This document shows, piece by piece, positions 1-19,357 of a stretch of 64,000 bases of DNA. The position numbers were made by a program, and so were the translations under genes. Each line of letters begins with the position of its first letter. The stretch's first letter is position 1. The notes below the pieces were generated by a model. It worked only from the letters and a program-made list of their open reading frames with translations. It was not told where the DNA came from and ran no database searches. This DNA is from a phage: the NCBI GenBank assembly GCA_033286805.1, contig GCA_033286805.1_4727.1. One strand, written 5' to 3'.

Positions 1-456
1 AGCGATTGCCAAATTCTGTTTGTATAACGTATTCCCAGTTGTGAAGTCGAATCCAAAACTGTTCCCATACCGTAGGTGCGGTGCCAGCGTTGACGAAGCT
101 TCGAAGCTTTGCGCGATGGGTTTACGACCAACGGCTTTTGTGTAGTGACGGCGGATGTTGCTGAGTTCGAGCTGTAGTGCGCGACTACGATCGATAAACC
201 GTGCGATAAACGCGGTAATGTTCCGCAACGTTGTCCAGATCGCATCGATGATGGCTTTGATGATTTTCATCGCAAGCTGATTGTACGATTCCATCGTGAG
301 GAGATCAGCACTTTCTGTGGTATAACCGGTTGCCGGAATACCGCCTGCTTGCTGATAAATAAGCTGGTGAATTTGTCGTTGCGTTGCTGTCTCTGGCACA
401 GGTAATGTTTTTAACAAGCTTAACGCTTGAATCTGTCCGTCATAGGTCTGCAGCAT
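1..456 (-). CDS. hypothetical protein, 3' end runs off the window edge (begins MLQTYDGQIQAL)
   Basis: ATG at 456-454 preceded by GAGGAAA; frame checked open for ~40 codons towards position 1; start overlaps the end of the upstream gene. Confidence 0.45.
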   Translation of the reverse strand, partial: MLQTYDGQIQALSLLKTLPVPETATQRQIHQLIYQQAGGIPATGYTTESADLLTMESYNQLAMKIIKAIIDAIWTTLRNITAFIARFIDRSRALQLELSNIRRHYTKAVGRKPIAQSFEASSTLAPHLRYGNSFGFDFTTGNTLYKQNLAIA

Positions 457-1741
457 TGCTGGTTTCCTCAAGTTCGAGATGCGCGTCAAGATAATCATTA
501 AGACCGTCGATGACGTCGCAGACAGTTAACAGGAATCGGGCAAAAGCAACCGCCTGGAAGCCGACGACGTTACGCGCGATACCCACACGTTGAACGATAG
601 CGGATGCGGTGGTATCGTCGTTGTCCATCTGTTGTAGCAAACGCTCGTAAGGTTGAATCCATTCGTCCTGGTCGGCAAGGCTTGTTTCAAGACAACGTTT
701 AAATTCCAACTGTCGTAGCGTAGACCATAACGTACTTAATGCGTTGATGATCGCGTTGGTTCCGTCGATAACATCGTTTAACGGTAAGAAACGGAATCCG
801 TCTTTTGCTGATTGGAAAGGTACAGCCTCCCACACAACACTGAACTGCGTTCCTGATGCGTCTTCGATGTTGTGTAATTTAAGGTAGGAAGCACCAACAG
901 GAACGTCAACGACCAGATCGTCTGTTCCGGTAGGTGTTAACGGTTTCTCGCATAACGCATCGTTGATGACTTCGAGGATATTCTCCCAACAGGCTTCGTT
1001 TTCTGCAGCGATACCTTCTTTGTTATCCGCTGATGGTGCTTTTAGTAGCTGCATTAATAACGGATCGAGTTGACGATGCCATGCTGCGAGGATTCCTGTG
1101 TTCGTTACGATGTTTTCTGCGGTTTGTCGTAAATCAGCAATGCTGCTCACCGCACCGCCTTTCGGATGAAGATATCGCCAGTTGTAAGGAAAGTTCTCCC
1201 AGAATGCGTTATCTTCATTAACATCGTATTCGGAAATAGTTTTCAACGCAGCCGCTTTCTTTAATAACGGCTTCACCTGACGAACGAATCGACGATAACA
1301 ACGATTGCAGATATCGATCGCGTAGCGGTATAATTCGTTCATGTAAAGCCATAACGCTCGGGTTGCTTCTTTTGCGGTCTTGTCAAAACTTTCCATGTTC
1401 AAGCTCATCCCGCTGGAAGTTTCCTCTTCCATACCTTCGATGATGTGGTTTGGATCCATCCCCATCCCGGCTGCTGCGGTCGATGCGATATGTTTGATGG
1501 TGTTGATATCGCGTTCCTCGACTTCAGCCATGTTTGGGACAATATCCAGCCTGAGTTTATTTAATGTTTGAAGGTGTTGTTCACCTTCTTTCATCACCGT
1601 GTTTGTTTCGTCGATTGAGTGAAACTGATTCTCAATATTACTGGCATCGAGAATGTTGCCAGCGATACCGAACGATTCTACAGGTTCATCATCAATCCCT
1701 TGAAACAACGATGTCATGGGTTGTTGTAACACGTTTTCCAT
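440..1741 (-). CDS. putative virion/internal protein, paralog family member
   Basis: 433-aa ORF, ATG with GGAG SD; shares a central segment (IIEGM...) with neighbouring paralogs. Confidence 0.65.
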   Translation of the reverse strand: MENVLQQPMTSLFQGIDDEPVESFGIAGNILDASNIENQFHSIDETNTVMKEGEQHLQTLNKLRLDIVPNMAEVEERDINTIKHIASTAAAGMGMDPNHIIEGMEEETSSGMSLNMESFDKTAKEATRALWLYMNELYRYAIDICNRCYRRFVRQVKPLLKKAAALKTISEYDVNEDNAFWENFPYNWRYLHPKGGAVSSIADLRQTAENIVTNTGILAAWHRQLDPLLMQLLKAPSADNKEGIAAENEACWENILEVINDALCEKPLTPTGTDDLVVDVPVGASYLKLHNIEDASGTQFSVVWEAVPFQSAKDGFRFLPLNDVIDGTNAIINALSTLWSTLRQLEFKRCLETSLADQDEWIQPYERLLQQMDNDDTTASAIVQRVGIARNVVGFQAVAFARFLLTVCDVIDGLNDYLDAHLELEETSNAADL

Positions 1742-1767
1742 TTGGGACTCCTACGTAGGAAAATCTT

Positions 1768-1816
1768 GGCGGGTGATCATGTCCGCCATTTACCTTCTGA
1801 ACCGTTGATTCAGAAG
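1768..1816. promoter_or_regulatory. two further hairpins in the same leader (GGCGG...CCGCC and CTTCTGAA...TTCAGAAG)
   Basis: Inverted repeats at 1768-1787 and 1794-1816 between the terminator hairpin and the start at 1741. Confidence 0.4.
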
Positions 1817-1848
1817 TCAAAAGATAACCGGATACCAACGTCATAAAA

Positions 1849-1881
1849 CCTTCCTCCAACCCAACAGGGAAGGAGGAAGGG
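1849..1881. terminator. GC-rich hairpin element CCTTCCTCC-AACCCAACAGGGA-AGGAGGAAGG
   Basis: 9-bp stem read directly; flanked by CATAAAA on the left; 10 nt downstream of the minus-strand stop at 1891. Confidence 0.6.
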
Positions 1882-1890
1882 ATATAGTGG

Positions 1891-3180: not shown

Positions 3181-3189
3181 GTTAGTTCC

Positions 3190-4506
3190 TTAACCTTTGG
3201 TATAAGCTTTAACGAGAGTGTTGATAAATGAGGTCAATGCACGAAGATATTGGTAAGCGAATTGGTTTTCAATACGGTTCTCTTTACCGCAAAGCAGAAT
3301 CGCGCGCTTAACGAGCTTAGGATAGATCTCAACGTACGGTTGGTAGCTTGCATCAAAATTCTGTTCGTTGAAGCGTTTCATGGTGATTTCCTGGATGCGC
3401 TCCATGGTACGAATTTTATTGCGAGAGAACATCTCAGAGAAAGCACGTCCGCGTTTTGTTACCATCAACAGATCTTTCGCGAACGTCAGTTGTCGAACGC
3501 TACGCAAATCGTCAGGTGTCGGCAGGACGTACGTTTCCGGGTCACTATCCCATTCAACATCTTCAACGACAATATCCAAGTCGAGGTAACGTTTAACCGC
3601 ATCGACGATATTGTCTTTTGATGCGTCGAATTCTTTCAAGAAGACCGCGCCGTTGATGTAACGAATGCGTTTTCCGGAAACCGTTGGAGTGATAACGTCA
3701 GTACCTTCCACGGAACCGCGATTTTCCAGCGTTGATTTGACAGCGTTCAAGAAAGACAGGTAATCAACGGGAAGTTTTTCAACCTTATCTAAATGGAAGT
3801 CGATGATGTTTAACCCCAACCCATCAATAACCGAATAGCCGTCCGATTTAAGGAACATCTGATTGAAGGTATCAATGTTGCTTTTCAGCGTGTCTACACC
3901 ACCAACGTTGTTACGGTTAGGGAAAAGTGTCCGCCACTCCGCTTTAAACGCAACTTCTTTATTTTCCTTGTATTTGCCTTTAGGCATTTGTTCGAGGTCT
4001 GCAACGGCTTTCTGAAAATTGCGCGTCTCGTCGTAAACAAGACGGGTAAGCTTCTCGAAGGCTGCTGCCAAGGTCAGGGCAATATCAACAATGATATCCC
4101 AGATCTTTTTCATGGCTTTTACAACGGTGTCCTTAAACCCTTCAACAACCAAAGCTTCTCCAACTTCAACACGATCGGTTGGAGTCAGCAATGCTTCGGA
4201 GGGTAGACCCAGAGCAATCGATGCGGATTCTTGCACATTACGAACTAATGCAACGTCACTGTAGTTAGCCGATTCGATAGTCGGAGCAACATCAAAACTG
4301 ATTTCCCGTAATGCGGCAACAGCAGGGAAAGCACGATCAAGTGCATCTTCATGTTCGTCGATTGTCGCCAAACGTAATTCAACGCCATCAGCATCGATGA
4401 CATCGGCTGTAGGCTCCACAGCAAGCGCCTCAGCAACAATAGGATCTTTTTCAAACGCCTCAAGGCTGATATCGCCTTGGGTCGCAAATAGCGGTATGTG
4501 TACCAT
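3190..4506 (-). CDS. putative virion/internal protein, paralog family member
   Basis: ORF track starts at TTG 4530; ATG at 4506 has a GGAGA SD. Motif RVEVGEALVVEGFKDTVVKAMKKIW. Confidence 0.7.
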   Translation of the reverse strand: MVHIPLFATQGDISLEAFEKDPIVAEALAVEPTADVIDADGVELRLATIDEHEDALDRAFPAVAALREISFDVAPTIESANYSDVALVRNVQESASIALGLPSEALLTPTDRVEVGEALVVEGFKDTVVKAMKKIWDIIVDIALTLAAAFEKLTRLVYDETRNFQKAVADLEQMPKGKYKENKEVAFKAEWRTLFPNRNNVGGVDTLKSNIDTFNQMFLKSDGYSVIDGLGLNIIDFHLDKVEKLPVDYLSFLNAVKSTLENRGSVEGTDVITPTVSGKRIRYINGAVFLKEFDASKDNIVDAVKRYLDLDIVVEDVEWDSDPETYVLPTPDDLRSVRQLTFAKDLLMVTKRGRAFSEMFSRNKIRTMERIQEITMKRFNEQNFDASYQPYVEIYPKLVKRAILLCGKENRIENQFAYQYLRALTSFINTLVKAYTKG

Positions 4507-4554
4507 GTGTTGTCTCCAGTAATGATTCAAAAGATAAACCTGAGCGGCATAGAA

Positions 4555-4586: not shown

Positions 4587-4608
4587 AATATGTCAGTTTA
4601 TTAACTGA

Positions 4609-5931
4609 TTACTGCTGTGCTGCGTCAGCCGGTTTCTCAGCCGCCTGGCCGCCGTACTCTTTCAGCATTTTAGCAACGCCATCCAGGACAGCGTTACCTG
4701 CCTGAACACCGTATTTCATCAGACCGGTCTGCGGGTTCACGTAGCAGGAACGTGCGTCTTTCAGCGCAGACAGTACAGCTTGAACACGCTGTTTTTCCTG
4801 AGCGGAAACTTCGCCTTTCTTAGACAGATCGGCTTCCATATCGTCACCGAATTTAACAGCGTCTTTGAAGCCCTGGGATTTCTTACCGATGTTGCCTTTC
4901 AGCGCCAGCAGTTTGTCAGCCAGTACTTCAACACCGCTAACCGCAGCAGCCAGCTGGTTCAGGGACAGGACGGTAGCTTCAACTTCTTTTGCTTCGCCGG
5001 TGCGTTCCCAGGTTACTTTACCATCGTTGGCTTTGAAACCCCAACCTGCCGGACCAGCAACGTCAGCAATCGCCGGAGCGTTCAGTTTATCAGCGTACTC
5101 GGTGTGAGATTTAGCAACAACGGTACCAACGAATTTATCAGCGCGATCGTCAGCAGCCTTCATTGCTTTCTCGAAGGTGTCAGCGATTTTGGTCGCGCCG
5201 GTAACCAGATCGTCGCCACCGATGTAGCCAGAAACGCCGCTACCCAGTTTAACTTTGGTATTTTTAGCAGCGCCTTTACGTTTGGCGATCATTTCTTTCA
5301 GTTTAGCGGCACGTGCTTTCAGCTTGGTTGCGCCGTCGAAGATACGATCCATGAACTTCACGAAGGTTTCCCAGGAAGTCTTCAGGAAGTTCTTGATGGT
5401 TGCCCACAGTTTCTGCCACCATTTTTGTTCTTCCAGGAAGATCATGTTGGTTGCATCGTAGCGGGAAGCGGAACCACCGAAGCTTTCGAAGGACGGCATG
5501 GTTTCCGGCAGTTTGAAACCGATAGTACCGCACAGACGTTTCAGATTACGCATGTGTTCCTGAGCGGTTTGTGCAGACATACCACCGTCTTTCAGGTAGC
5601 TTTCGGTTGCAACAACGGTTTCCGTCAGTTCATCCATGGCTTCGTCCATGGCTTCTGCGGTTTCGTCGTCTTTTGCAATTTCGATAACAACAGCATCAAC
5701 CTGCTCGATATCACCACGAACTTCGATAGCCAGTTCGGTTTCAGCTGCGGTATCTTCAGCGATTTCAGCACGTTCGGTCAGTTCAGCCACAACGGTTTCA
5801 TCCGCTGGTGCAGCATCAGCTGCCGGTTCTGCTTCAACGGTTGCCGCTGCATCCGGATCGATCTCAGCAGCCAGTTGAACCAGCTGTGCGTTAGATGGAT
5901 TTGCGACAAGACGATCAAAAATAGAAGGCAT
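4609..5931 (-). CDS. putative virion protein with acidic Ala/Glu/Asp-rich N-terminal region
   Basis: 440-aa ORF, ATG with AAAGGAAAC SD; the antisense 390-aa ORF is Cys/Phe-rich and was rejected. Confidence 0.7.
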   Translation of the reverse strand: MPSIFDRLVANPSNAQLVQLAAEIDPDAAATVEAEPAADAAPADETVVAELTERAEIAEDTAAETELAIEVRGDIEQVDAVVIEIAKDDETAEAMDEAMDELTETVVATESYLKDGGMSAQTAQEHMRNLKRLCGTIGFKLPETMPSFESFGGSASRYDATNMIFLEEQKWWQKLWATIKNFLKTSWETFVKFMDRIFDGATKLKARAAKLKEMIAKRKGAAKNTKVKLGSGVSGYIGGDDLVTGATKIADTFEKAMKAADDRADKFVGTVVAKSHTEYADKLNAPAIADVAGPAGWGFKANDGKVTWERTGEAKEVEATVLSLNQLAAAVSGVEVLADKLLALKGNIGKKSQGFKDAVKFGDDMEADLSKKGEVSAQEKQRVQAVLSALKDARSCYVNPQTGLMKYGVQAGNAVLDGVAKMLKEYGGQAAEKPADAAQQ

Positions 5932-5971
5932 AATTTGTTTCCTTTACAATAAATTGCACATTAGCTAATGC

Positions 5972-6004
5972 GGCTTAAGTGAACCATCAGCCCACTTAAA
6001 AGCC
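5972..6004. terminator. hairpin TTAAGTG...CACTTAA
   Basis: 7-bp inverted repeat overlapping the 3' end of the 5996-6526 gene. Confidence 0.35.
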
Positions 6005-6526
6005 CTTAAAACCCGGTGCCATAGGTTGCCCAAACACCGCATTCAAAGTACATATGATGTCCTGGATGCCATTGTCCCAATGGAGCCAAGTACGCACCAT
6101 CTCTTCGTCTGACAACGTGATATAACTCATAAGTTTACCGCTGCTTTCCAGACGTTGGTGTGAACTTAACGACTGACGATCTGACCAGTTATCAATCAGT
6201 TGACCAGCAATCTGAACGTTCGTGTCTCGTCTACCCGTGTGAATGAATCGTAGCGTATCACGGATAAACTCCAGACTGGTGAAGTTCAGATTTGGGTTAT
6301 GGCTGTTCATTTCCACCCAATCGGTGATGGGGTACATCAAACGATAAAGGGTAGAAAGAACCTGACGTTCATATTTCCAGTCATCGAGAGGAGTACCGTC
6401 GACCAGACGCTGATACAAACTAACAACGTCACGATCGTAGTTCTCCTGGCGTTTTACGCCGTTAACCGGAAAACCAAAGAACCCGGTACCGTATAATGTT
6501 AAAGGGACGTCACGAAGTGCATTCAT
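5996..6526 (-). CDS. hypothetical protein
   Basis: 176-aa ORF; ATGA start/stop overlap with the upstream gene. Confidence 0.6.
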   Translation of the reverse strand: MNALRDVPLTLYGTGFFGFPVNGVKRQENYDRDVVSLYQRLVDGTPLDDWKYERQVLSTLYRLMYPITDWVEMNSHNPNLNFTSLEFIRDTLRFIHTGRRDTNVQIAGQLIDNWSDRQSLSSHQRLESSGKLMSYITLSDEEMVRTWLHWDNGIQDIICTLNAVFGQPMAPGFKGF

Positions 6527-7425
6527 ACAGCCGCCTCTTCTTTTCGTTTAATATCGTAACGAAGTTTCTTCAGTCGCTCTTCGTGATATTCGATCTGCTG
6601 CTGGATTTTTGGATCGTTGCCCGCATTCTGTTGCTTTTGCTTCAGTGACAAAATCCAATACTCCAACGCTTGGGCTTCTTCTTTGGCTGCTTGTAATGAT
6701 GCTTCTTCACGTTCGCTACGCCAGATGCGATAACGGTAAATAAGCGTGCTGGTCATTTGAGTGTCGGACCATGAGCCCATACGCATCGGGTCAGTATTAC
6801 CCGCGTTGTATAAGCCATTACCAACACCGTCTTCATCAGAAACCACAACATCCGGGATTTTATCCAACCCAGCAAGGATCTGTTGTTTCTGTCCGCACAG
6901 CACCTCGGTGGCAATGGCAAAACCGTACATGTTGGCGGTCAGGTAAGCAATCTCGTTTTTGGTGAAGAACTCACCAAGTGCTTTATCACCACCTGGCATG
7001 CTTTCGCAGATGACCGTTGCACGAAGCAGCGTACGAGCATAGCTAACGTAGAAGCCCAGGGACTCAACAAGACGTACCAGAGCAGCTTCTTTGAAACTTA
7101 GGCCGTCAGCGGCAACATCGATTTCCAGGTTTTTGTTAACACGTTTAACAATTTCTGGAATCAGGTCAACAGCATTACGTAGCGCTAAGTGAACGTTTTC
7201 TACCCAGCTTCCGGAGCGAACGCGGGTTAAACGCTGGTGCAGATCCTTATCAGCAAGTTTCCATAAGGCGCTTTCTCCCTTTTGGAGAAGCGAAGCGGAT
7301 GTCTCGTAGTAAGGAATCGCGGTGTTGTTGATTTCGTCACGGATTGATTCGAGTGCGTCAGCAACACCGGTGCGTTTAAAAAGCGGCTTCAAACCGCGAA
7401 TGAATTCTTTAAAATCGATTGCCAT
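6523..7425 (-). CDS. hypothetical protein
   Basis: 300-aa ORF, ATG with AGGTG SD. Confidence 0.65.
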   Translation of the reverse strand: MAIDFKEFIRGLKPLFKRTGVADALESIRDEINNTAIPYYETSASLLQKGESALWKLADKDLHQRLTRVRSGSWVENVHLALRNAVDLIPEIVKRVNKNLEIDVAADGLSFKEAALVRLVESLGFYVSYARTLLRATVICESMPGGDKALGEFFTKNEIAYLTANMYGFAIATEVLCGQKQQILAGLDKIPDVVVSDEDGVGNGLYNAGNTDPMRMGSWSDTQMTSTLIYRYRIWRSEREEASLQAAKEEAQALEYWILSLKQKQQNAGNDPKIQQQIEYHEERLKKLRYDIKRKEEAAV

Positions 7426-7464: not shown

Positions 7465-8571
7465 TTAACGAATCTGTGGGACGTTTCCGGTACGGAGCGC
7501 CTGGAGGATCGTCAGGAGATCGGAACCCGAAGTTGACGAACTGTTGGATTTTTCCAGTTGCTTGAAGCTTACGGTGGTCCCTTGATCCAAGCTGTGGAAA
7601 TAGAAGGTCACCATCTCTTCAGCTTCGTCGATGATGATCAACTGCATTGCGAGGGCTTCAGCCATGACTTTCTGACGTGTGGTATAGTCAGATAAACGAC
7701 GTCCGATCTTACGCTCGATGGCTTCCTGGTTAGCCTTAGAGATGATATAGGTGGAGGCGATGGCTCCAGAAGAAGGGATCTTTGTGCTCGCTGCAGCTTT
7801 TGCGGCATTGATGCGCGCAGCGTTAACAGCCTTACGGATACCCTCTTTATCCATGCGTGAGATTCGTTTATGTTCACGAACCAGATCGCTAAGCAGGATC
7901 ATATCGCTCCAGAAAGATAGCTCACCTGCCATCATGCGATGCCAACGTGCTCGCCAGGTGTTCTGTGGGCCACCGATCGCTAAAATCGATGCAAGCACTT
8001 CCGCCGGTGAACTTGCGATACGCATGCTGATGTTCAACGGCATTTTCATCGTTGCCTGACCATCGGTCAGCGTCACGGTTAAGAACTTGCCGGTAACCGC
8101 GTTCGCATCTTTGTTCAGCAATTCGATCGCAGCGTCGCTGGCTCCAACATCGGCGATATTTTTTTGTTTCCCCTGCAGGTTGAATCCTTTGTCATCAAGG
8201 AAAACAAGGCTTTTGCTATCCGCACTTTCCAGCGCTAATTTAACAGCCTTATCCATCAGGTTAGCGTTACGATTTGGGTTCACACGACCCAGCGTTTTAT
8301 CGACACTGATGTTACCCACCTGCATGATGGTATTCAACGCCAGTAAATAGAACCCGGTATACATGTTTTCAGCGGTGCGCATGCAGTTGCCTAACGCATT
8401 GCGTGCGTCGCTATAATACAACTCACGTTCAAAGATCAACGGCGCGATAACGCGTGAAGGTTGTGAGAGTTCAACCAGCGAACCTGGCTGGATAAGTTTA
8501 TTAACTTCGTAGACTTTAGCGATACCGGACGCAACAACGTTAACAGCGTCGGCAATTTCTGATGCTACCAT
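7465..8571 (-). CDS. hypothetical protein (possibly structural)
   Basis: 368-aa ORF, ATG with AAGGA SD. Confidence 0.65.
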   Translation of the reverse strand: MVASEIADAVNVVASGIAKVYEVNKLIQPGSLVELSQPSRVIAPLIFERELYYSDARNALGNCMRTAENMYTGFYLLALNTIMQVGNISVDKTLGRVNPNRNANLMDKAVKLALESADSKSLVFLDDKGFNLQGKQKNIADVGASDAAIELLNKDANAVTGKFLTVTLTDGQATMKMPLNISMRIASSPAEVLASILAIGGPQNTWRARWHRMMAGELSFWSDMILLSDLVREHKRISRMDKEGIRKAVNAARINAAKAAASTKIPSSGAIASTYIISKANQEAIERKIGRRLSDYTTRQKVMAEALAMQLIIIDEAEEMVTFYFHSLDQGTTVSFKQLEKSNSSSTSGSDLLTILQALRTGNVPQIR

Positions 8572-8605
8572 ATTGAAATCCTTATTTACAAATAAAGGAA
8601 AGAAA

Positions 8606-9814: not shown

Positions 9815-12808
9815 ATGAGCGTAACCAACAAAGATCTTGCTGAACAGCTCAATCGCTATATGCTTTCACCTATTGAAATGCAGGCTGTTGCAAGCGATAT
9901 GATCCGTTTGGCTTCTGATGGTGAATTAACCCTGGTTGACCCCAGCTGTCCGTTTGTTTATCTGCTGGAGGTTGCAACGGCGACGGCGGCGAACCAGAAC
10001 GCACGGGATGAGTCCCGTGTTCGCGAACTGTATCCAAAACTTGCAACGAACTGGAACCAGCTCTATCGTTGGATGTATGATGAGTCGTACGTCGGACGTT
10101 TCGCAATGCCGGGTAAAACGGAAATCATTTATTCGTTAGGGTATCAGGAAATCCTCGATCGTGCGGTAGAGATTCCCAACACCATCGCCTCCGATGATTT
10201 AAGCCGTTCTTACAGCCGTAAGTTAGTGATACCGCGTACGACGGCGTTTACGGTGGCCGGGATGGATTTCGGGTTGCATTATCCCATCGAAATCCAAGTG
10301 CAAGCGCACGACCAGATACGCGTCGTTTATAACACTGATAACATCAGCCCATTGCAAACCTTGGAGAGTAACCAAGTTGAGTACGGGGTCGTTCGTGTAA
10401 AAGCGGGTAAAGTGTTGGTTATGCGTATCCCGCTGTTCCAGTTTAAAACACTGGTAAAAGATGTGCCGTTTAACAGCGTTCATGGGATGAACAGCAGCAT
10501 TACCTTCGAAGATCAGTTTTACCATTGTCGTGCATACATGTCGTCGGATAACGATACCTGGACGGAGATAGCGACAACACACAGTCAGCAGATTTACGAT
10601 CCGTTAACACCAACCATCGCGTTACAAGTAGAAGGGAACAAACTTAACTGGCGTGTTCCTGAAATTTATTTGTCTCAAGGTACGATGGATAAAAGCACCA
10701 TTCGACTTGAGGTGTTGACGACGAAAGGGAAAATCAGCGTCGACCCGTCTGATTACGACGTGACCGATTGGAAAGATAACTACATCGATCTGTCGCCAAA
10801 AGCCGAACAGAAATACAGTGCGCCGCTAAGTGCATTCAACATTAAAGGGATTTATAGCGAAGGGGCATTGTCGGGTGGACGATCTGCGTTAACGTTCGAG
10901 GAACAACGTGAACGTGTTATGGCGGGTGTGAACAAAACCAAGGTACCAATCACAGGAACGCAGGTCGAGCTGGTGCTTCAAGATGCGGGCTATGGGATGG
11001 TGACCACCATCGACAACGTAACTAATCGTTCGTTCCTGGCAACCCGAGATTTACCGCAATTGAGCGACAGCGTGCCGCAAGCCGGTTCGTTGATGGGGTC
11101 TTTCTATACGTCAGCCGCAGCATTGGTGAAAAGTAAGTTTGTCGCCGATAACGGCGATCGTATTACGATTAAACCTGATTGCTTGTATCGTGACAGTAAC
11201 GGAAGTATCGCGCTGTTGTCAGACGATGAAATTGACCGTATTAATGCAGGCAACTCCGATGCGAAGTTGAATGCGGTAAACAACGCCATGTTGTTCTACA
11301 GTCCGTTTCATTACGTATTAGATGCAACAAGCGATTTCGACATCCATGCTTATTACCTGGATGCCCCTAAGATCGGCACGCAAGCATTCCTCGACGCGAA
11401 CGAGACGATCCCGTTAACCGCTATGGTGACCGGATACCGTCTGGATCGTATCGCTGAAGGATATCGTCTAAGCCTCATTGTAGAAGGTAACGACGCATGG
11501 AAGGCGCTCGACGATAAAAACGTGCATATCCAGCTGGGGTTCAATCCGCGGGGTGAGGGTGATTATGCGACGATGCTAGCATCACCGACAACCGATGAAC
11601 AAGGTCGTCGTTTGTTCACCTTCGATATCACCACGAATTATGATTTTACGCGAATCCTGGCTGATGATTCCACGGCGTATGAACCGTATATCGCATTGAC
11701 GTCGTTCTCGATGTATGAATCAACACCGCGGGATTATTGGGCATCACTGCAGCAGTATTTGGAAATCTTCCATGTGGTGACGGATTACGCACCGGAAGAT
11801 GTCGACGGTATTTTACACAGTGCTTCCGATAATTACCTGGTTAAGAAACTCACGCTTCAAAATGGGTATTGTTTCTACCGTGAACGTCTCACCGCAACCT
11901 TTGGTTACGATCTGGACGGTCTTTGGATGCGCTCACGTACGGTGGCCTCGGAGATTACGTATAAACGTTACACCGAGAACATCCCGTGGGTGTATGACGA
12001 AGATATTCCAGCGACGGATGAGACCGGTTCGGTTATCATCGAACAAGGTGATGATGGTACGTTGTCGGTTAAATACCTGCATCGTAAAGGAGACCCGAAA
12101 TTAAACAGTGATGGAAGCCAAGCCTATCGTTATCTGAAAGGCGACATCATGAAAGATAATTACGGTAATCCGATCCCCGTTGATGAACGTGAGGTTCTGC
12201 GTAACCTGGACATGTTCTTTATCGATGCGTCGTATCTGCTCGCGAACGATACGGACGTGATTGACTATCGTAATGCGATTCCTACGCAGCTTATTGAGTG
12301 GATCCAGAACGATATCAGCACGTTCAGGAATTTCTGTTATGAGGAAACAGAGATTTCATTGTATCCTAAGCAATCGCTGGGGTATGTGGATGTTATTGTG
12401 GAAAACGGATTGGAAACAACGCTTCCTGCTGCCTTATCGTTCAACGTGACGCTTTACTTACCGGCTAAGCAGTACGCAGACTTGGATTTACGTCAAGTCC
12501 TTCAAGCGATGGTATCGAAAGTCATCAATGAATGCTTAACATCACGTACAGTGGCTAAAGCAGAAATGATCGCGATGATTCGTGAGGAGGGCGGTGACGA
12601 CATCCTTAACGTTGAAATCGATGATTTTGGACCAGGTAAGAACCTCAGTGTTTATACCGCGAAGAACGACGGTGTTCGTTGTGCGGTGAAGAAAGAGCTA
12701 TATGTGAAAGCGGATGGTATCTTGTCCGTACGCGAAGCGATTGATGTGAGTTTTGTGAAACACGCACAAAGCAACAGTTCAGCGCTAGCGCAAGGCCTTC
12801 GTGTCTAA
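9815..12808 (+). CDS. large hypothetical protein (997 aa), possibly structural
   Basis: Long ORF starting 4 nt after the upstream stop. Confidence 0.7.
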   Translation: MSVTNKDLAEQLNRYMLSPIEMQAVASDMIRLASDGELTLVDPSCPFVYLLEVATATAANQNARDESRVRELYPKLATNWNQLYRWMYDESYVGRFAMPGKTEIIYSLGYQEILDRAVEIPNTIASDDLSRSYSRKLVIPRTTAFTVAGMDFGLHYPIEIQVQAHDQIRVVYNTDNISPLQTLESNQVEYGVVRVKAGKVLVMRIPLFQFKTLVKDVPFNSVHGMNSSITFEDQFYHCRAYMSSDNDTWTEIATTHSQQIYDPLTPTIALQVEGNKLNWRVPEIYLSQGTMDKSTIRLEVLTTKGKISVDPSDYDVTDWKDNYIDLSPKAEQKYSAPLSAFNIKGIYSEGALSGGRSALTFEEQRERVMAGVNKTKVPITGTQVELVLQDAGYGMVTTIDNVTNRSFLATRDLPQLSDSVPQAGSLMGSFYTSAAALVKSKFVADNGDRITIKPDCLYRDSNGSIALLSDDEIDRINAGNSDAKLNAVNNAMLFYSPFHYVLDATSDFDIHAYYLDAPKIGTQAFLDANETIPLTAMVTGYRLDRIAEGYRLSLIVEGNDAWKALDDKNVHIQLGFNPRGEGDYATMLASPTTDEQGRRLFTFDITTNYDFTRILADDSTAYEPYIALTSFSMYESTPRDYWASLQQYLEIFHVVTDYAPEDVDGILHSASDNYLVKKLTLQNGYCFYRERLTATFGYDLDGLWMRSRTVASEITYKRYTENIPWVYDEDIPATDETGSVIIEQGDDGTLSVKYLHRKGDPKLNSDGSQAYRYLKGDIMKDNYGNPIPVDEREVLRNLDMFFIDASYLLANDTDVIDYRNAIPTQLIEWIQNDISTFRNFCYEETEISLYPKQSLGYVDVIVENGLETTLPAALSFNVTLYLPAKQYADLDLRQVLQAMVSKVINECLTSRTVAKAEMIAMIREEGGDDILNVEIDDFGPGKNLSVYTAKNDGVRCAVKKELYVKADGILSVREAIDVSFVKHAQSNSSALAQGLRV

Positions 12809-12862: not shown

Positions 12863-12871
12863 AATATGTTG

Positions 12872-15800
12872 TTATCTTACGTTACTGCTATTCTGCTGTT
12901 CGCTGAACCAACCGTACACCTTGAGATCGGTACCATATCTCAGTGCGATATACGCATTCAGCGCAGCACAGAACAAAGACGCGAATGCCCATATCAGCGA
13001 AGGATCAACATCTTCCGTTACCACTGGGAGAGTATTATCCGGTTCCCATGATGGAGAACTGTCCATGAACGTCGTGTACCATTCCCGCCGTTGTTCTTCA
13101 GTGGTAAAGTCGCTATGGGGTTCCAATGCTTCTTTTGCCAGACGTCGATATTCGAACATATGCGTTGCTAAAGCCGATGAGTTACCAGATTCGCCTTCAT
13201 AGTTCGGATCCACCGCATAACAGAGTTCTGTGGAATCTAACAAAGCGACCGCCTGTGTGATGCTGTCGGCAGTGCCTGCACCATAGAGCTCGATAGACCG
13301 CGAGAGCTTCTCACAGAACGCATTTAACGCGGCAGGATTGGACACCTGAAGGTCAAGGCCTAATGTCCACGGATAGTTACTGAATACACCCGTAAACCGC
13401 GGCATAACACCCAACAGATGTTGTCCGATTACAGCACGGTTATAAACAGCCCGGTTATAGACTTGAAACGCAGCCTCCAGGGCTTGGTTATAATGACGAC
13501 GAAGTTCATCACGCGTGTTGCGGAACCTGTTTGCCGCGAGACTTGTGGCTGCAACGCTACAAACATCGTAATTGGTGGACGAGAGCACAACCTCGTTAAG
13601 ATCGAACGATTCCTGTTTCAATGTTCCGCTAACAGCTGCCGCTTCGCTGTTCGCTTTATCGACAACTGTACTCAAAGCGTTGATGTAACGTTTAGCTCGG
13701 ACCTCCAACCATTGTGCGATGCCGAGAATATCCACCGCAGCTTTAGCAAGATCGCGTGCATTCACGATTTCGTTCTTCAACGCCCCTAAACCTTTATTTT
13801 CAGGCGATGAGGCTTGTTGACGAATCATGCTGTTCAACATGGTAAGCAGATTATCCAACTCATGTCCGCTGACCTTGTTACGCGCATCGGTAATCGGCCC
13901 TTGCAGGAATTTACGGCAACCATCGTTGTATCGAATCAGTTTATCCACATCGATAGATTCGTTCGTAGATTCCTTGAACTGATCCTTCAATTCTTCACGG
14001 TAGTCGTGGATTTCACTTGCGAGATTATCGATAGTGATACCGTCATGTCCAAGAAGAACTTTATTGAAGTTACCTTTCTCGAATGCCAGAGCAAGACCTT
14101 CACGAATCTTAGCGAGTTTATCCTGATCGAGTTCACGACCGTTCGATAGCTCTTTCACTTCCGAGCTGATTAATGCCGAAACGTTACCCAGATTGTCGGT
14201 AACTCCTTTGAACGCTCCCGACCAAATCGTTCCTACTTCAGCATATTTCGCAATGGTCTGAATACCGACGGTGTGTAGCGACGCTAAACGTTTCTTCGTG
14301 CCTTCGGTAAGCAGAGCGTCTTTAGCTCGCGTAAGCTGACTGTTATTAGCTTCCGCCTGCTGAATCGCTGCTTTCGCACTTCCATTACGCCAGCTCTTAA
14401 CCAGCCAATCAACCAAACGTTTTAGGATATTGACGGTGTATTCCATTGTCCGCCGTAACGTTTCCCACGCGCTTTCTGCGGTATAGATGCCGTACCCTTC
14501 CATCTTCAACGCTTTCAAGCTTGTTTGACGTGCCAACCATTCTACCGTTGCAGAGCAAACGTTTACTAATGCTTCCAGGTAGTTGTAATAGACGTCTGTT
14601 GCAGTTGTTTCGTTGAACTTTGAATGCAGATAGAACTGATCGTAAAGTTCGTCGTCATCGCCGAAGGCATCATAGTTCCACAGTTCTGTATCACAACCTG
14701 TACCGCAGAAGACGTCAGCTGTCGTAAACTCTTTAAGCGCTTTAGCTGCGTCATTTGTCAGGAATTTACCTGTTTCAACTACATCGTCAACATTAAGCTT
14801 GGGGAGTTCGTCGGTGACTGGCTCTTCCAACATCAGCATATTGAAGAATGTGCTGTACTTGTATCCGAGCCATTTTGGATAACTGCTTTCAGGGATCGTA
14901 GACAGCGGCTTGATTTTCTTGGCTTCAGCCAATGTGTCTTTTGCGACCTGATATTGGTTTTCCCCAGCCTTGACGCGACGTAATGCTTTTTCTTCCAACT
15001 GCTTAAGCTTGGCATGGCGTGCTTGTGCTGGAGCTTCAACAAGTTTTTGTACCGACCGCATTGCAGAAATCGCTTCTTTTAATACGATCATCGGCATACG
15101 AACTTTACCGTCGTCGAAACTAAGAGCGCGAGCGACACGTTTACTTACGACCGGCTTATCATGGATATTTCGTTCCACCCACGATTTGTTTGCGTAAGTT
15201 TGAGCGATCTGCTGTTGGATATTTTCAAGGTATTTCCAGCTGCTGGATGCTTTATTATCCAAAAGCGGATTCGGTCCCTTCTTATCGAAAAGTTTCAGAA
15301 TCGGACCAAAGAAACCTTCCTGTACGAGTTCGATACGCGTGTATCCGTCAGCCGCTTCGATTTCTTCTTGGGTTTTGTCCCAGAGCTGTTCACTACGGAC
15401 AGCAGTAGCTGTTTCAGATACCGACATAACAAGCTCGGCAACAACTTCAGCGCAGGTCAGTACGGTACGCACGCATTGCAGTAGCATACGCTGGTAAACG
15501 ATACGGGCGTTTTGTAAACGTGCGATAACCGCTAAATAACCGATATTGTCAAGACGTTCGTCGGCTTGAGCAGAGTCAACACGTTCTATCAGTTGTTTAA
15601 CCAGCGCGGCTGTTTCCGGATAATCGTTCACGACGTCACGCATAATTCGTGATGCGAAAACCGCGGTACCTAAAACAGTGAGGAGTGTTTTACTATCCCA
15701 TTCTTTTGGTGTCGCTACCGATTCAGTAGGGATGAGATTTCCCGCCTGGTCGAAGTACGGCATAAGGACATTGATATCAGTAGACGGAACAGCAGTAATT

Positions 15801-16477
15801 GCGTTATACTCTTCATCCGCACCATCGTTGCCAGACGGCTGTAATGCAAGTGCTTGTTCAAGGATTTTGCGGTCAGCGGCATAAAGCGCCGACAGAGCTT
15901 GCGTTGCCGCAACCAAATCAACGATCGGCGACCAGAGCTGTGCGAGCTTACCTTCGTATTTCCGTACAGCGATAGCAAGGTCTTCTTTTACGTCTGGATG
16001 ATTGATTAAACCACCCAATGTTTCATGGATGGCAGAAAAACGTTCGGAATGTGCTTGTGTCAACGCGGTAAAATCGTCAACGTACGACGCATTTTCTTCA
16101 AGGCGTGTAAGTTCCTGCTCCAGGAGATCTTTTACTTGCGTAGCAGATGCGTTTCTCAACTGTTCACCGATAATCGCGATGGCTTTATCGACAACGCGAC
16201 AAGCTTCATTGAAGCCGGTTGTTGAAGGTAACTCGGTCCATAATGCCAGCGGCTTACCTTCCATTGCGTCAGGAAGGGAATATGACAACATTGCTAGTTG
16301 TTGACGTGATACCTGTTTGTCACGATGTAATGTTTCTTTCAACGCCAGAAGCTCATCAAGACCCACACTGCTAGGGATCGTGGGATGTGATACAGCGTTG
16401 ATGTTTTCTGCTAATGACTCAAGAACCAATAAACCATTTTCAGCGGAAGATAACCCTGCTTTAAGGTATTTGTTCAT
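12872..16477 (-). CDS. large putative virion/internal protein (1201 aa), paralog family
   Basis: ATG with GGAG SD; contains RIELVQEGFFGPILKLF, related to the motif in the 430-aa paralogs. Confidence 0.7.
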   Translation of the reverse strand: MNKYLKAGLSSAENGLLVLESLAENINAVSHPTIPSSVGLDELLALKETLHRDKQVSRQQLAMLSYSLPDAMEGKPLALWTELPSTTGFNEACRVVDKAIAIIGEQLRNASATQVKDLLEQELTRLEENASYVDDFTALTQAHSERFSAIHETLGGLINHPDVKEDLAIAVRKYEGKLAQLWSPIVDLVAATQALSALYAADRKILEQALALQPSGNDGADEEYNAITAVPSTDINVLMPYFDQAGNLIPTESVATPKEWDSKTLLTVLGTAVFASRIMRDVVNDYPETAALVKQLIERVDSAQADERLDNIGYLAVIARLQNARIVYQRMLLQCVRTVLTCAEVVAELVMSVSETATAVRSEQLWDKTQEEIEAADGYTRIELVQEGFFGPILKLFDKKGPNPLLDNKASSSWKYLENIQQQIAQTYANKSWVERNIHDKPVVSKRVARALSFDDGKVRMPMIVLKEAISAMRSVQKLVEAPAQARHAKLKQLEEKALRRVKAGENQYQVAKDTLAEAKKIKPLSTIPESSYPKWLGYKYSTFFNMLMLEEPVTDELPKLNVDDVVETGKFLTNDAAKALKEFTTADVFCGTGCDTELWNYDAFGDDDELYDQFYLHSKFNETTATDVYYNYLEALVNVCSATVEWLARQTSLKALKMEGYGIYTAESAWETLRRTMEYTVNILKRLVDWLVKSWRNGSAKAAIQQAEANNSQLTRAKDALLTEGTKKRLASLHTVGIQTIAKYAEVGTIWSGAFKGVTDNLGNVSALISSEVKELSNGRELDQDKLAKIREGLALAFEKGNFNKVLLGHDGITIDNLASEIHDYREELKDQFKESTNESIDVDKLIRYNDGCRKFLQGPITDARNKVSGHELDNLLTMLNSMIRQQASSPENKGLGALKNEIVNARDLAKAAVDILGIAQWLEVRAKRYINALSTVVDKANSEAAAVSGTLKQESFDLNEVVLSSTNYDVCSVAATSLAANRFRNTRDELRRHYNQALEAAFQVYNRAVYNRAVIGQHLLGVMPRFTGVFSNYPWTLGLDLQVSNPAALNAFCEKLSRSIELYGAGTADSITQAVALLDSTELCYAVDPNYEGESGNSSALATHMFEYRRLAKEALEPHSDFTTEEQRREWYTTFMDSSPSWEPDNTLPVVTEDVDPSLIWAFASLFCAALNAYIALRYGTDLKVYGWFSEQQNSSNVR

Positions 16478-16492
16478 AAAACACTCCGTTGA

Positions 16493-16523
16493 CCTAGGTG
16501 GAGGCCAATAACCTCCACCTAGG
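16493..16523. terminator. hairpin CCTAGGTGGAGG-CCAATAA-CCTCCACCTAGG
   Basis: Perfect 12-bp stem between the 16559 gene end and the 16477 gene start. Confidence 0.6.
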
Positions 16524-16558
16524 GTTGAACAACGCGTACGGTTATACGGTACGCACGA

Positions 16559-19357
16559 TTACGCTAATTTACCGAAACCGGCTTTCTGTAGTTTCTCGTT
16601 GATCAGTTTTGCTTCCGCGAAAACATAATCACGATACGCGGTCACTAACCCGTCCACCCGTGAACGCAAGGCTTCTTCGAAGCTATACCACGCAGCGATT
16701 TCACGAATCTGTGCGTTGATATAATCAACGGTTGAGCGAAGCTCGGTTGCGTTTTCTTGCGGGATGGCTTTCACCTGGCGAGCAACGTCATTTAAACGAC
16801 GGAACTGTGTTTCGATTTCTTTAAACTTACTGTCGGCAAGTTTGCTGAATTCGTCACCAGAACGGGTAAATAACAGATAGCTGTTGCCGTCAAGTGCGGT
16901 CGCTAACTGCTGAAGTACGTTGGTGTCCGGATACACAGGAGTACCGCTTTGCAATACTTTCTCACCGAATTCCGCGAAGTCCTTCGGCGGTAAGTGCGCA
17001 GACGTTGTCAATTCGTTGAAACGGAAAGTCAGCGAATTATCATACAGCATCCGGTACGCTTCCATACCCTGTTTCATGGTACCGGCCAGGTTAGCCAGAC
17101 GCGGAGCAATCTCACCCTCTTTAGCGCGTTTCTGATCTTCTAACGCCCCTTCCAGTTCTTTACATTGGTCGTTCAGATACACGATACGATCGGGACGCAG
17201 ACGACGCATCTCACGAAGAATAGTATCCAGCTTGCCTTCCTGGAAATAACCTAACGTTAAAGACGTACACGCTTGCTGAAGACGATCGAAGACCGGTAAA
17301 GTCACCATCTCCTTACGGATACCATCAACAATCGCAGAGACAGCCGAAAGTTTCTGTTCTGTCGTTAATGGAACATCAGAGGCCGACTTGCTGGGTGCAC
17401 CAACAACGTTACGCATTGCGTCGGTATCCTCGGTTTTATCAACCTCTTTACGAACATGCTCATCAGGAACATAAACGTTAGCATTACGTTTCGCCTGCTT
17501 GATGGCGTCGTTGGCCGCTTTTTCGGTGGCTGCTACGCTATCAGCACGTTTCTTCAAGAGTTCAATAATCCAGAGCAACAGACGACGAATCGCAGTATAG
17601 GCCGTCGTGATGATGACACCGATAACAGCCATCTTCATGATACCGAACGATTCCATGGTCGGCTCTAATGCCTGGTCTGGCATATACCGTTCACGCAGTT
17701 CCAGATAGATCTGCTCATCTGGTTTGCTGACCTCACCACGATGCGAAGTACGATAGATGGCTTCGTCAATCTCAACAAGATCTTTGCGGGCCTGACGGTC
17801 TGTTTCGGTCAGATAAGCGCAGCCAGATACGTCGTCTTCAAAACTTTCGAACTTAAAGAAATCGACAACCATCTGGGCAAGCATCTCCTTCTTAGCAGGA
17901 TCGAGTGTCTTCGCATCTTCTTTTTGCTTAGCCGCTGCTTTATCGAATTTCTCTTTGTAATCATTCAGGGGTTTCACTGCTCTTGCTTTCAGTGCCTGAT
18001 AAATGATTTTCCAATCATCGTCACGTTCGAGGATGATGAAATGGTTTTTGAGTTCGAAAGCGCGATAGCGTGCAACGAGCTGTTCCACCTGAATGTGGGC
18101 GAGTTGGATATCCATTAGCCAACGGGACATCGCTGAAATCAAACGACTAAAAGCAAACAGCGCTTGATACGCGAGTTTCATATGCGTCTCGTACAGCTCT
18201 ATATCGCCGCTCCGGATATCGGCTGTTGGATTCATTTCTTTCGTTGCTTTGAAGATCTGCTCTGCTTCTTTCAGCGTCTTTTCGAACTTAACGTCATTAA
18301 ACGCGGTGAATGGTTCAGCGAGCTCATGCATTTTATCATGGAGTTCACGAACCCAAGCTTCCTTGTTGTTGCGGATGACGCTTCCATCGTGAAGTTCGGT
18401 TTGGTGTTTCTGTACCCATTCTTCGACGATATCTGCTGCGGCGACAACACCGACGTTTTTACCAACGAGAGGAACAATGGCTTCAAGTGTGCCGCGTCGG
18501 ACACCCCATAACCGATTTACCGAATCGTAGAATTCTCTGATCTCGGCTATATGTGGAACAATATTTAAGAAGGTGTTCCCGTTATGGCTCATCGATGAAG
18601 CCATTTCCGAGAATTGCTGGAACTTAATGACGACATCAGGGATCGTGTCCATCAGCCATTCTGCAGTATACTTCGCTTTCTCTTTCAGATTTTTGTCAGC
18701 GATTTCTTTAAGGTTAATCGCGCTACCGTATCCTGCAAGTTCGTTGTAGACGTCGTTAACCGTCATCTCTTTATCCAGCATTTCTTTAAAACGTGGATAA
18801 TCTGCACCTAACGCATCGATGACTTCTTGGATGATGTCGTCTGTGGTGGCGATAAATTTATTCGTACCCCCGTAATGTTTCCAGATTTTCTGTAGCGTCT
18901 TCTTAAAGAATTCGAAGACGAATGTCCAGATACGCTTAATGAGTTCCCAGACTTTCTTCGCACCATCGACAAACAGTTTAGAGACCTTGGCAACGAATCC
19001 TTCCTGTACCAACTCAACGCCGTTACGTGATGGGATTTCGGTGAAGAAAGCATCCGGTAGTTGTTTCGGGAACGCATCACCAAGTCGCATACGCAATTCG
19101 GGTACATCGGCACGAGAAATACCACGCGTCGTTAGCTGCTCGTGAAGACGAACGTTTTCTTCACCAGAGGCTACGAATTCGTTAACGTCAAATGAAACCA
19201 GTTCTTGATCTTCGGTGGTAACGACGCTTGAACCGTCACTGGTTTGGATGTCTTCGTCAGGGAATGCCATGAGCATACCGTGACGCATTTCAACCACTCC
19301 GTAATCGGTTGCTAAACCGAATTCGTTGTGGTCTGGGGTAATAACTGGGATACTCAT
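16559..19357 (-). CDS. large putative virion/internal protein (932 aa), paralog family
   Basis: ATG with AAGGAG SD; contains GVELVQEGFVAKVSKLF. Confidence 0.7.
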   Translation of the reverse strand: MSIPVITPDHNEFGLATDYGVVEMRHGMLMAFPDEDIQTSDGSSVVTTEDQELVSFDVNEFVASGEENVRLHEQLTTRGISRADVPELRMRLGDAFPKQLPDAFFTEIPSRNGVELVQEGFVAKVSKLFVDGAKKVWELIKRIWTFVFEFFKKTLQKIWKHYGGTNKFIATTDDIIQEVIDALGADYPRFKEMLDKEMTVNDVYNELAGYGSAINLKEIADKNLKEKAKYTAEWLMDTIPDVVIKFQQFSEMASSMSHNGNTFLNIVPHIAEIREFYDSVNRLWGVRRGTLEAIVPLVGKNVGVVAAADIVEEWVQKHQTELHDGSVIRNNKEAWVRELHDKMHELAEPFTAFNDVKFEKTLKEAEQIFKATKEMNPTADIRSGDIELYETHMKLAYQALFAFSRLISAMSRWLMDIQLAHIQVEQLVARYRAFELKNHFIILERDDDWKIIYQALKARAVKPLNDYKEKFDKAAAKQKEDAKTLDPAKKEMLAQMVVDFFKFESFEDDVSGCAYLTETDRQARKDLVEIDEAIYRTSHRGEVSKPDEQIYLELRERYMPDQALEPTMESFGIMKMAVIGVIITTAYTAIRRLLLWIIELLKKRADSVAATEKAANDAIKQAKRNANVYVPDEHVRKEVDKTEDTDAMRNVVGAPSKSASDVPLTTEQKLSAVSAIVDGIRKEMVTLPVFDRLQQACTSLTLGYFQEGKLDTILREMRRLRPDRIVYLNDQCKELEGALEDQKRAKEGEIAPRLANLAGTMKQGMEAYRMLYDNSLTFRFNELTTSAHLPPKDFAEFGEKVLQSGTPVYPDTNVLQQLATALDGNSYLLFTRSGDEFSKLADSKFKEIETQFRRLNDVARQVKAIPQENATELRSTVDYINAQIREIAAWYSFEEALRSRVDGLVTAYRDYVFAEAKLINEKLQKAGFGKLA

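Follow-up and report, generated by a model that had tools for sequence, protein, structure and literature searches.

The left part of a 64,000-nucleotide stretch of phage DNA (contig GCA_033286805.1_4727.1 of assembly GCA_033286805.1; hereafter the window) raises the question of whether genes at 440–19357 that share a short Glu-containing motif encode internal head proteins that are cut at this motif by a prohead protease, as was proposed from an inspection of the letters and open reading frames (ORFs) alone (hereafter the sequence-only reading). Megablast with 440–19357 returned Escherichia phage vB_EcoM_Goslar as the sole match (95.8% identity over 90% of the query); judged by its sequence, the window is from a Goslar-like, nucleus-forming jumbo phage of E. 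coli in the Chimalliviridae, and many near-identical genomes of ~237 kb are present in metagenomes and in assemblies of E. coli, Salmonella, and Shigella. Most genes encode proteins 97–99.7% identical to their Goslar orthologues, the exceptions being gp65 (91%) and gp64 (78% over the aligned part), and the proteins are named here after these orthologues (e.g., gp55-like). We consider it likely that a protease of the Goslar gp212 type cuts internal head proteins encoded in this block after a conserved Glu and that the matured parts are packed in the head, to be ejected or held at a vertex. Protease-matured internal head and ejection proteins of chimalliviruses are a known kind, and the presence of the orthologues in virions has already been published; added here are a junction that extends across the family, its equivalence by alignment to mapped SPN3US sites, a positional match to phiKZ gp86, a departure from the published S/A/G-x-E specificity, and the polymorphism of a cassette in the gp64-like protein.

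All five strings on which the sequence-only reading was built are present, i.e., IIEGM in the gp55-like protein (residues 100–104), (I)VLEGF in the gp56-like protein (residues 126–131), (L)VVEGF in the gp57-like protein (residues 127–132 of the mechanically called ORF, 3190–4530), and LVQEGF in both the gp64-like (residues 384–389) and the gp65-like (residues 116–121) proteins. The motif was generalised to E-(G/S)-(F/Y) and counted in a crude gene set of the whole window. Seven internal-head ORFs (the five above, the gp58-like ORF, and the truncated gp54-like ORF) contain 13 instances over 4,047 residues; when the seven proteins were shuffled with their composition preserved, the mean was 2.1 and 13 was never reached in 5,000 trials. 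The other 56 ORFs of the window contain 11 over 15,859 residues (Fisher p = 2.6e-4). A residue profile anchored on the Glu (P1) was compiled from 13 candidate sites, ten in the window and three from Goslar gp53, a 1125-residue PF12699 protein with four motif instances that is encoded outside the window (L002 27118–30495). P4 is L or I at 10 of the 13 sites (background L+I 15%, binomial p ~1e-6, with the reservation that the sites are not independent, some being paralogues), P3 is occupied by V (4), K (3), T (2), and N, S, A, or P (one each), P2 is mostly M (6) or Q (4), P1′ is S (7) or G (6), and P2′ is F (11) or Y (2). A Trp within an amphipathic helix lies no more than 30 residues after the motif in 9 of 13 internal-head instances, as compared to 4 of 11 elsewhere in the window. 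The motif is real, and its conservation extends beyond the pentapeptide. At least six genes with related central segments had been claimed, five strings being quoted and a sixth left unspecified; seven genes carry the generalised motif, and the segments are not central but lie at 13–32% of protein length, where they close an acidic N-terminal region. The T4-type pattern of a hydrophobic residue, any residue, and Glu did not hold up: L or I occupies P3 at none of the 13 sites (V at four), and the conserved hydrophobic position is P4.

Evidence that the motif marks a maturation junction comes from a MAFFT L-INS-i alignment of the small proteins of the window with Goslar gp53 and gp54, SPN3US gp53 and gp54, and phiKZ gp92–96. 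This alignment contains a single column with Glu in every sequence, and this is the motif Glu. The column holds E125 of SPN3US gp53 (AQE125↓GW; the arrow marks the scissile bond) and E137 of SPN3US gp54 (ARE137↓SLW), both of which are maturation bonds mapped by semi-tryptic peptides (PMC10052503). In phiKZ gp92–96, the same column is occupied by canonical S-x-E sites with I or V at P4 (ISLE↓D, ISQE↓E, ISTE↓D, VSLE↓D, and VSTE↓D), and in the Goslar-type proteins by LNME↓SF (gp55-like), IVLE↓GF (gp56-like), LVVE↓GF (gp57-like), IFLE↓EQKWW (gp58-like), LTME↓SY (gp54), and IAME↓GF (gp53). Independently, BLASTP aligned residues 133–229 of SPN3US gp54 with residues 823–911 of Goslar gp53, placing E137 opposite E827. 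The small proteins thus match, at this column, the jumbo-phage inner-body and ejection proteins with which a comparison had been proposed. Two upstream candidates were set aside on the basis of the family alignment, PSFE149↓SF of the gp58-like protein (nt 5479–5496) in favour of IFLE167↓E, and IIE↓GM of the gp55-like protein in favour of NME117↓SF. The latter candidate (HIIE102↓GM, nt 1430–1447) lies 15 residues upstream of LNME117↓SF and is not the homologous segment for which it had been taken; it may be an additional propeptide site, a kind common in the family.

These proteins form one family only in part. The gp55-, gp56-, and gp57-like proteins are mutually detectable paralogues in BLASTP (E 1e-8 to 4e-18), and the gp58-like protein is a clear member of PF12699 (76 bits, above the Pfam gathering score of 27 bits); the gp57-like protein scores below this threshold (22.5 bits), with a match that covers the pro-region and the junction, and no PF12699 match was found in Pfam for the gp55-, gp56-, gp64-, and gp65-like proteins. 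A PF12699 fold has been asserted for Goslar gp54–57 from AlphaFold models (bioRxiv 10.64898/2026.04.21.720040). The paralogous family of the sequence-only reading thus comprises the small proteins, which share the one Glu column, but not the 1201- and 932-residue proteins, which have in common only ~35 residues around the motif (BLASTP E 0.03); hhalign comparisons of gp64 and gp65 segments, used as single sequences, with PF12699, phiKZ gp86, and SPN3US gp47 were all negative. The pro-regions upstream of the junction are free of Trp, contain 19–22% D+E, and have a net charge of −15 to −26 (e.g., −21 for the 129 N-terminal residues of the gp56-like protein, without a Trp), as compared to mature parts that are neutral to basic. 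A HMMER search with the gp57-like protein against 1.84 billion representatives gave six matches; relatives at ~30% identity retain PLVLE↓GFQE, SLVME↓GFKE, and QLVLE↓GFKK, and the six relatives show motif conservation but are too few for a logo. For this protein, the ATG at 4506 was taken as the start (the mechanical ORF opens at a TTG at 4530; P0121 agrees at 99% over 1–438).

For the gp65-like protein, published structures provide a second line of evidence. Goslar gp65 is a structural homologue of phiKZ gp86, a component of the inner vertex-binding complex (bioRxiv 10.64898/2026.04.21.720040), and cleavage has been mapped at SQE-122 in phiKZ gp86 and at SQE-113 in 201phi2-1 gp148 (PMC5694885; PMC11297242). 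The phiKZ gp86 site reads TISQE↓AVMATIINTLKTWFEKL in the RefSeq protein, and site 1 of the gp65-like protein reads ELVQE119↓GFVAKVSKLFVDGAKKVWELIKRIW, with a Trp-rich helix downstream; SQE↓AVMATIINTLKTW of gp86 parallels VQE119↓GF in its distance from the N-terminus, in the syntenic gene, and in the downstream helix. VQE119↓GF corresponds to SQE↓AV of gp86 by position, synteny, and similar downstream helices rather than by sequence alignment; neither BLASTP nor hhalign with single sequences aligned the gp65-like protein with phiKZ gp86 or SPN3US gp47, so that synteny and the published structural comparison are what link gp65 to gp86. In the composite Goslar entry of the PDB, where chains are given by modelled span, gp65 covers residues 134–934; residues 1–133 are missing, and the deposited chain opens 14 residues past the motif. 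The major capsid protein covers residues 158–740 in the same entry, in agreement with the preprint, in which residues 1–157 are absent. In the gp65-like protein, the 19-mer with the highest hydrophobicity (Kyte-Doolittle mean 1.68; helix residues 572–590) comes after the second site, PTME569↓SFGIMKMAVIGVIITTAYTAI, and in SPN3US gp47 a predicted transmembrane helix comes after the mapped site, IVALE↓SWANAGKVGLVVLIMTAII (PMC10052503; PMC5694885); site 2 resembles ALE↓SW of gp47, a resemblance that is not based on alignment. A word-indexed search with gp65 returned only sequences with at least 85% identity; among these Goslar-like variants (85–99%), residues 1–142 and both junctions are invariant, and one variant has lost a third E↓SF, at residue 504. 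Residues ~143–510 of the gp65-like protein (17828–18931, minus strand), located between invariant flanks, are hypervariable among Goslar-like phages (18 identities of 48 in one stretch), which suggests diversifying selection or recombination in this middle domain of an internal capsid protein.

The gp64-like protein carries three junction motifs and differs most from its Goslar orthologue. Its C-terminal 540 residues are 98% identical to Goslar gp64 and its N-terminal 387 residues ~45%, and a cassette of 273 residues lies exactly between the first two of them; by sequence comparison, the gene combines at least two allele types in a recombinant mosaic. Goslar, a 99%-related ENA contig, and IMGVR_UViG_3300011560_000001 have LVQEGFFDPTKMEGYG at the cassette site; the cassette is lacking in most relatives and present in one IMG/VR contig, IMGVR_UViG_3300045988_173921. 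The N-terminal 387 residues (15317–16477, minus strand) are 96% identical to IMGVR_UViG_3300011560_000001. Distant homologues of the cassette occur in other jumbo phages (Erwinia, Klebsiella, and Serratia-type). In Erwinia phage pEa_SNUABM_54, two tandem homologues, with VSQE↓GLL and ASTE↓GFFD ahead of them, follow a nucleoside-deoxyribosyltransferase-like domain; Klebsiella phage Eowyn encodes a stand-alone homologue of 306 residues with a 17-residue leader that ends SVSME↓GL; and in phage KpGz_1 a 19-residue leader ending VSLE↓Q precedes a homologue followed by the same enzyme-like domain (Nuc_deoxyri_tr2). All cassette copies terminate in (I/V/L)-x-x-E, and a G-x-G-C-D-x-x-x-W motif is conserved in the cassette. 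As the GFFD start is part of the module, the short gp64 alleles look like deletions. The cassette appears weakly PF12699-like (hhalign probability 54%; sub-threshold Pfam E-value of 0.0013 for the Eowyn homologue), and a single-sequence AlphaFold2 model of it was unusable (mean predicted local distance difference test score 38.8). The word-indexed search gave no match to the cassette or to its Erwinia homologue, an exact look-up of the 1201-residue protein returned none, and the variant gp64 segment was unmatched among complete E. coli genomes.

Virion data are available for Goslar, not for this exact phage, from the liquid chromatography–tandem mass spectrometry of Basu et al. 2026 (bioRxiv 10.64898/2026.04.21.720040), and our peptide tests cover the peptides of its Table S4 that begin with A through ELK. 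Goslar gp54–58, gp64, and gp65 were all detected in purified virions, in agreement with the virion location assumed in the sequence-only reading, at ~70 (gp54), ~50 (gp55–57), ~2,150 (gp58), ~110 (gp64), and ~76 (gp65) copies per virion; injection was reported for gp58 only, and the preprint neither maps cleavage sites nor describes the junction motif (bioRxiv 10.64898/2026.04.21.720040). As a control, a pro-region peptide of the major capsid protein, AAALIMLAHGNPVEYAK, had an area of ~1,300–2,200 against a protein mean of ~61,000, and residual propeptide fragments are therefore detectable. Pro-region peptides of gp58 (areas 4,880 and ~900–2,500 against a mean of ~124,000) and gp65 (ADVPELRMR, 451 against ~19,800) likewise reached ~1–4% of the mean peptide area. 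The three pro-region peptides of gp57 and the single one of gp56 were not found, with mature-region peptides of both present. The pro-region peptides of gp55 were uninformative on depletion. For gp64, two of six N-terminal peptides were found (areas 8,390 and 2,420) and six of seven from the C-terminal part (maximum area 75,300), and a semi-tryptic peptide, ANSEAAAVSGTLKQE, with an area of 14,100 against 5,460 for the tryptic form, ends exactly at LKQE685↓AF, the Goslar equivalent of the third junction; AFDLNEVVLS, expected downstream of this site, was not found. In Goslar gp53, one abundant peptide has a non-tryptic start two residues past GPME441↓SF. The junction-spanning peptides relevant to cleavage are LVEGQAIVLEGFK, VEVGEALVVEGFK, NGVELVQEGFVAK, and YDATNMIFLEEQK, and the predicted post-junction N-terminal peptides are GFK, GFVAK, SFDK, GYGIYTAESAWETLR, SFGIMK, and EQKWWQK. 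The proposal that these are proteolytically matured internal or ejection proteins is supported by the column of mapped sites, the positional match to phiKZ gp86, the presence in Goslar virions, the reported injection of gp58, and the start of the gp65 chain at residue 134.

The candidate protease is Goslar gp212, which is annotated as a head maturation protease and is 30% identical to phiKZ gp175 (E 9e-25); its gene lies ~80 kb past the right end of the window in Goslar coordinates. SPTME197↓GF of gp212 aligns with SPALE210↓NY of phiKZ gp175. In Goslar virions, none of the three searchable C-terminal peptides of gp212 was found and the mature peptides were strong, a pattern that agrees with the C-terminal processing known for the gp21/gp175-type protease family. 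Published specificities are S/A/G-x-E for phiKZ gp175 (Thomas et al. 2012, as cited in PMC9026906 and PMC11297242) and likewise for 201phi2-1, and A-x-E for the SPN3US prohead protease gp245 (PMC10052503; PMC5694885).

Several observations weigh against cleavage by this protease at these bonds. P3 at the junctions (V, K, T, N, S, P, or A) is off the published S/A/G-x-E and A-x-E, with a small residue at only 2 of 13 sites; the prohead protease gene was not found in the 64-kb window by tblastn with phiKZ gp175. The autocleavage of phiKZ gp175 is at E210, and the mapped SPN3US autocleavage site, AQE203↓S, aligns ~10 residues past TME↓GF of gp212, so that the argument from gp212 itself is ambiguous. 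Pro-region peptides of gp55 and gp64 are present at moderate levels, no N-terminus that starts with G/S-F/Y was observed (peptides beginning with G or S fall outside the A through ELK range), and two motifs of gp53 are spanned by intact peptides, YIME456↓SY by EIRPEIKDEYIMESYK (area 17,600) and IAME827↓GF by EIGPDNFQGNVEATEIAMEGFMDTVK (weak, area 541); not every motif instance is cut, or cutting is incomplete. Either the specificity has drifted in the Goslar lineage or part of the conservation is structural. In its full form, the latter alternative holds that E-G/S-F/Y is conserved solely for structure, forming the cap and the first turn of the amphipathic helix that opens the mature fold, with the real cuts at canonical S/A/G-x-E sites elsewhere in the pro-region. 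The unusual P3, the intact gp53 peptides, and canonical small-residue sites nearby (e.g., MSDE111 in the gp56-like protein, and GCE150 and SEE153 in the Goslar major capsid protein) speak for it, but the alignment column coincides with the mapped bonds of SPN3US gp53 and gp54 and with canonical S-x-E in five phiKZ paralogues, no S/A/G-x-E occurs in the gp57-like protein over the 30 residues upstream of its junction, a non-tryptic C-terminus was seen at LKQE↓AF, and the deposited gp65 chain begins just after the motif; we therefore regard this explanation as unlikely.

A narrower alternative, that only the N-terminal junctions are cut and that the internal motifs (E660 and E956 of the gp64-like protein, E569 of the gp65-like protein, and the extra gp53 sites) are uncut relics of fusion or duplication, leaving gp64 and gp65 as single chains, has a real though minor share of the probability. 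It accounts for the listing of gp65 in the PDB as a single span (134–934) and for the motif-spanning gp53 peptides; it is harder to reconcile with a semi-tryptic peptide that ends at the Goslar equivalent of E956, with the invariance of the E569 site and its resemblance to the mapped SPN3US gp47 site, and with cassette homologues in four lineages that have (I/V/L)-x-x-E ends on both sides. A chance or compositional coincidence of pentapeptides among unrelated genes would fit strings this short and the lack of any other detectable similarity between the two large proteins and the small ones. The six-fold enrichment, matched by no shuffle, the P4 and P2′ residues and downstream Trp helix that the sites also share, and the retention of the motif in homologues at ~30% identity effectively refute it, and we give it next to no weight. 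Beyond the cutting of internal head proteins after the conserved Glu, which we prefer over these alternatives, a further-reaching proposal is offered tentatively: the specificity of the Goslar-type protease may have shifted off a small P3 to L/I at P4 with G/S-F/Y, gp64 and gp65 may be true polyproteins, the cassette may be released as a separate, strain-variable injected protein, and cassettes delimited by cleavage sites may be a route for swapping cargo.

Under the preferred reading, the acidic, Trp-free N-terminal pro-region would direct each protein to the prohead core or to the inner shell. This role has analogies in the capsid-targeting sequences of T4, in the genetics of SPN3US gp47 (PMC5694885), and in phiKZ gp93 and gp162, the N-terminal parts of which line the shell (PMC11297242). 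A prohead serine protease of the gp21/gp175 type, the orthologue of Goslar gp212, would most likely then cut after the junction Glu, with a putative consensus of (L/I)-x-(M/Q/hydrophobic)-E↓(G/S)-(F/Y), and the mature part would open with G/S-F/Y and an amphipathic, Trp-containing helix. The mature PF12699 domains of the gp54- to gp58-like proteins would stay in the DNA-filled head until ejected together with the DNA, and the gp65-like product would stay at the inner vertex complex; the gp64-like protein reads as a putative polyprotein that is probably cut into several modules. We infer both that cleavage in this phage takes place exactly at these bonds and that the pro-regions act as targeting sequences.

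In phage T4, the internal proteins IPI–III and Alt carry capsid-targeting sequences that are cut by gp21 at L/I-x-E, and the mature proteins are injected with the DNA. The likeness to the present proteins lies in the N-terminal targeting peptide, its removal after Glu by a prohead protease, and the injection of the mature part; however, the T4 targeting peptides have 10–20 residues as compared to ~117–387 in the window, T4 has its hydrophobic residue at P3 rather than P4, and the substrates share no sequence homology. Goslar gp53–gp58, gp64, and gp65 are direct orthologues in the same gene order (97–99% identity for gp55–58), from which the window differs by the divergent N-terminal 387 residues (~45%) and the extra 273-residue cassette of its gp64-like protein. 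SPN3US gp53 and gp54 (paralogue family A) and gp47, which are encoded in syntenic order, lose propeptides of ~110–140 residues after Glu, with G/S and an aromatic or hydrophobic residue at P1′–P2′; in their A-x-E motif, V or A occupies P4, whereas the sites of the window vary at P3 and have L or I at P4, and sequence identity is near the detection limit. With phiKZ gp92–97 (PF12699, phiKZ_IP), the gp58-like protein shares the family, the operon is syntenic, and gp92–96 have the same Glu column, but Goslar-type sites lack the small P3; in addition, one paralogue (gp58) dominates in Goslar, whereas phiKZ has several at ~100–200 copies each, and, in contrast to phiKZ, no inner body is seen in Goslar by cryo-electron microscopy (bioRxiv 10.64898/2026.04.21.720040).

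Table. Genes, candidate junctions, and cassette of the head-internal block and its neighbours (window positions; arrows mark predicted bonds).
Feature	Position	Strand	Junction	Basis
gp54-like internal head protein, N-terminal 152 codons; gene exits left end of window	1–456	−	LTME↓SY, nt 283–300	Goslar gp54, motif, alignment
gp55-like minor internal head protein, 433 aa	440–1741	−	LNME117↓SF, nt 1385–1402	97.2% to Goslar gp55
gp56-like minor internal head protein, 429 aa	1891–3180	−	IVLE129↓GF, nt 2788–2805	Goslar gp56
gp57-like minor internal head protein, 438 aa	3190–4506	−	LVVE↓GF, residues 119–124, nt 4135–4152	Goslar gp57
gp58-like major internal (inner-body or ejection) protein, 440 aa	4609–5931	−	IFLE167↓EQKWW, nt ~5428–5445	99.1% to Goslar gp58
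gp59-like, PhiKZ_gp91 vertex-binding protein	5996–6526	−		Goslar gp59; no motif
gp60-like	6523–7425	−		Goslar gp60; no motif
gp61-like, phiKZ gp89 / SPN3US gp50 head protein	7465–8571	−		Goslar gp61; no motif
gp62-like, baseplate or tail-tube-initiator gene	8573–9811	+		Goslar gp62; no motif
gp63-like, baseplate or tail-tube-initiator gene	9815–12808	+		Goslar gp63; no motif
gp64-like virion protein, 1201 aa	12872–16477	−		Goslar gp64, 930 residues
gp64-like junction 1	15311–15328	−	LVQE387↓GF	motif
gp64-like junction 2	14492–14509	−	LKME660↓GY	motif
gp64-like junction 3	13604–13621	−	LKQE956↓SF	motif; Goslar equivalent LKQE685↓AF
273-residue cassette, residues 388–660	14498–15316	−	between VQE387↓GFF and KME660↓GYG	exactly between the two junctions; absent from Goslar
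gp65-like vertex-binding-complex protein, 932 aa	16559–19357	−	site 1 LVQE119↓GF, nt 18995–19012; site 2 PTME569↓SF, nt 17645–17662	Goslar gp65
gp66-like vertex-binding-complex protein, phiKZ gp85 homologue	19354–19794	−		Goslar gp66; no motif

By gene content and order, region 440–19357 is a conserved head-internal gene block, syntenic with phiKZ gp84–97 and SPN3US gp45–54. Homologues of phiKZ gp87, gp88, gp89, and gp91 adjoin the PF12699-type genes in a relative order shared with phiKZ and SPN3US; the block was identified by the annotation notes of phiKZ ORF087–089 and by matches to PF12699 and PhiKZ_gp91.

Elsewhere in the window, the DNA polymerase ORF (21359–23110, plus strand; 583 aa) is uninterrupted, an endonuclease-free allele; Goslar and the 99%-related ENA contig have ~1.7 kb with a NUMOD1/HNH homing endonuclease after DNA polymerase codon 499. 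The adjacent segment 23204–24949 (minus strand) contains small ORFs (23209–23682, 23733–24128, and 24169–24933) without a megablast counterpart in Goslar and appears to have been replaced. The tail-fibre gene region at 40134–41918 is 84–88% identical to Goslar, as compared to ~95–96% elsewhere, a divergence that likely reflects a difference in host range. Goslar segments of ~0.5, 0.39, and 0.71 kb are missing near 50030–50060, 55233–55284, and 61025, respectively, the last of which includes Goslar gp120. ARAGORN identified no tRNA genes in the 64-kb window.

These results do not overturn the current understanding of these phages; the Goslar preprint names the roles of packed and injected PF12699 proteins as a key unsolved question in the life cycle of chimalliviruses, and knowledge of where the mature forms begin would define constructs to express, tag, or mutate. 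If the motif is confirmed, cleavage sites would be predictable from sequence across Goslar-like phages, and a change of specificity within the protease family would be documented. The cassette polymorphism bears on strain-specific functions in early infection and on engineered protein delivery via phage heads; if the more tentative proposal set out above is true, a cassette flanked by cleavage motifs would be a simple route by which packaged cargo is added or removed.

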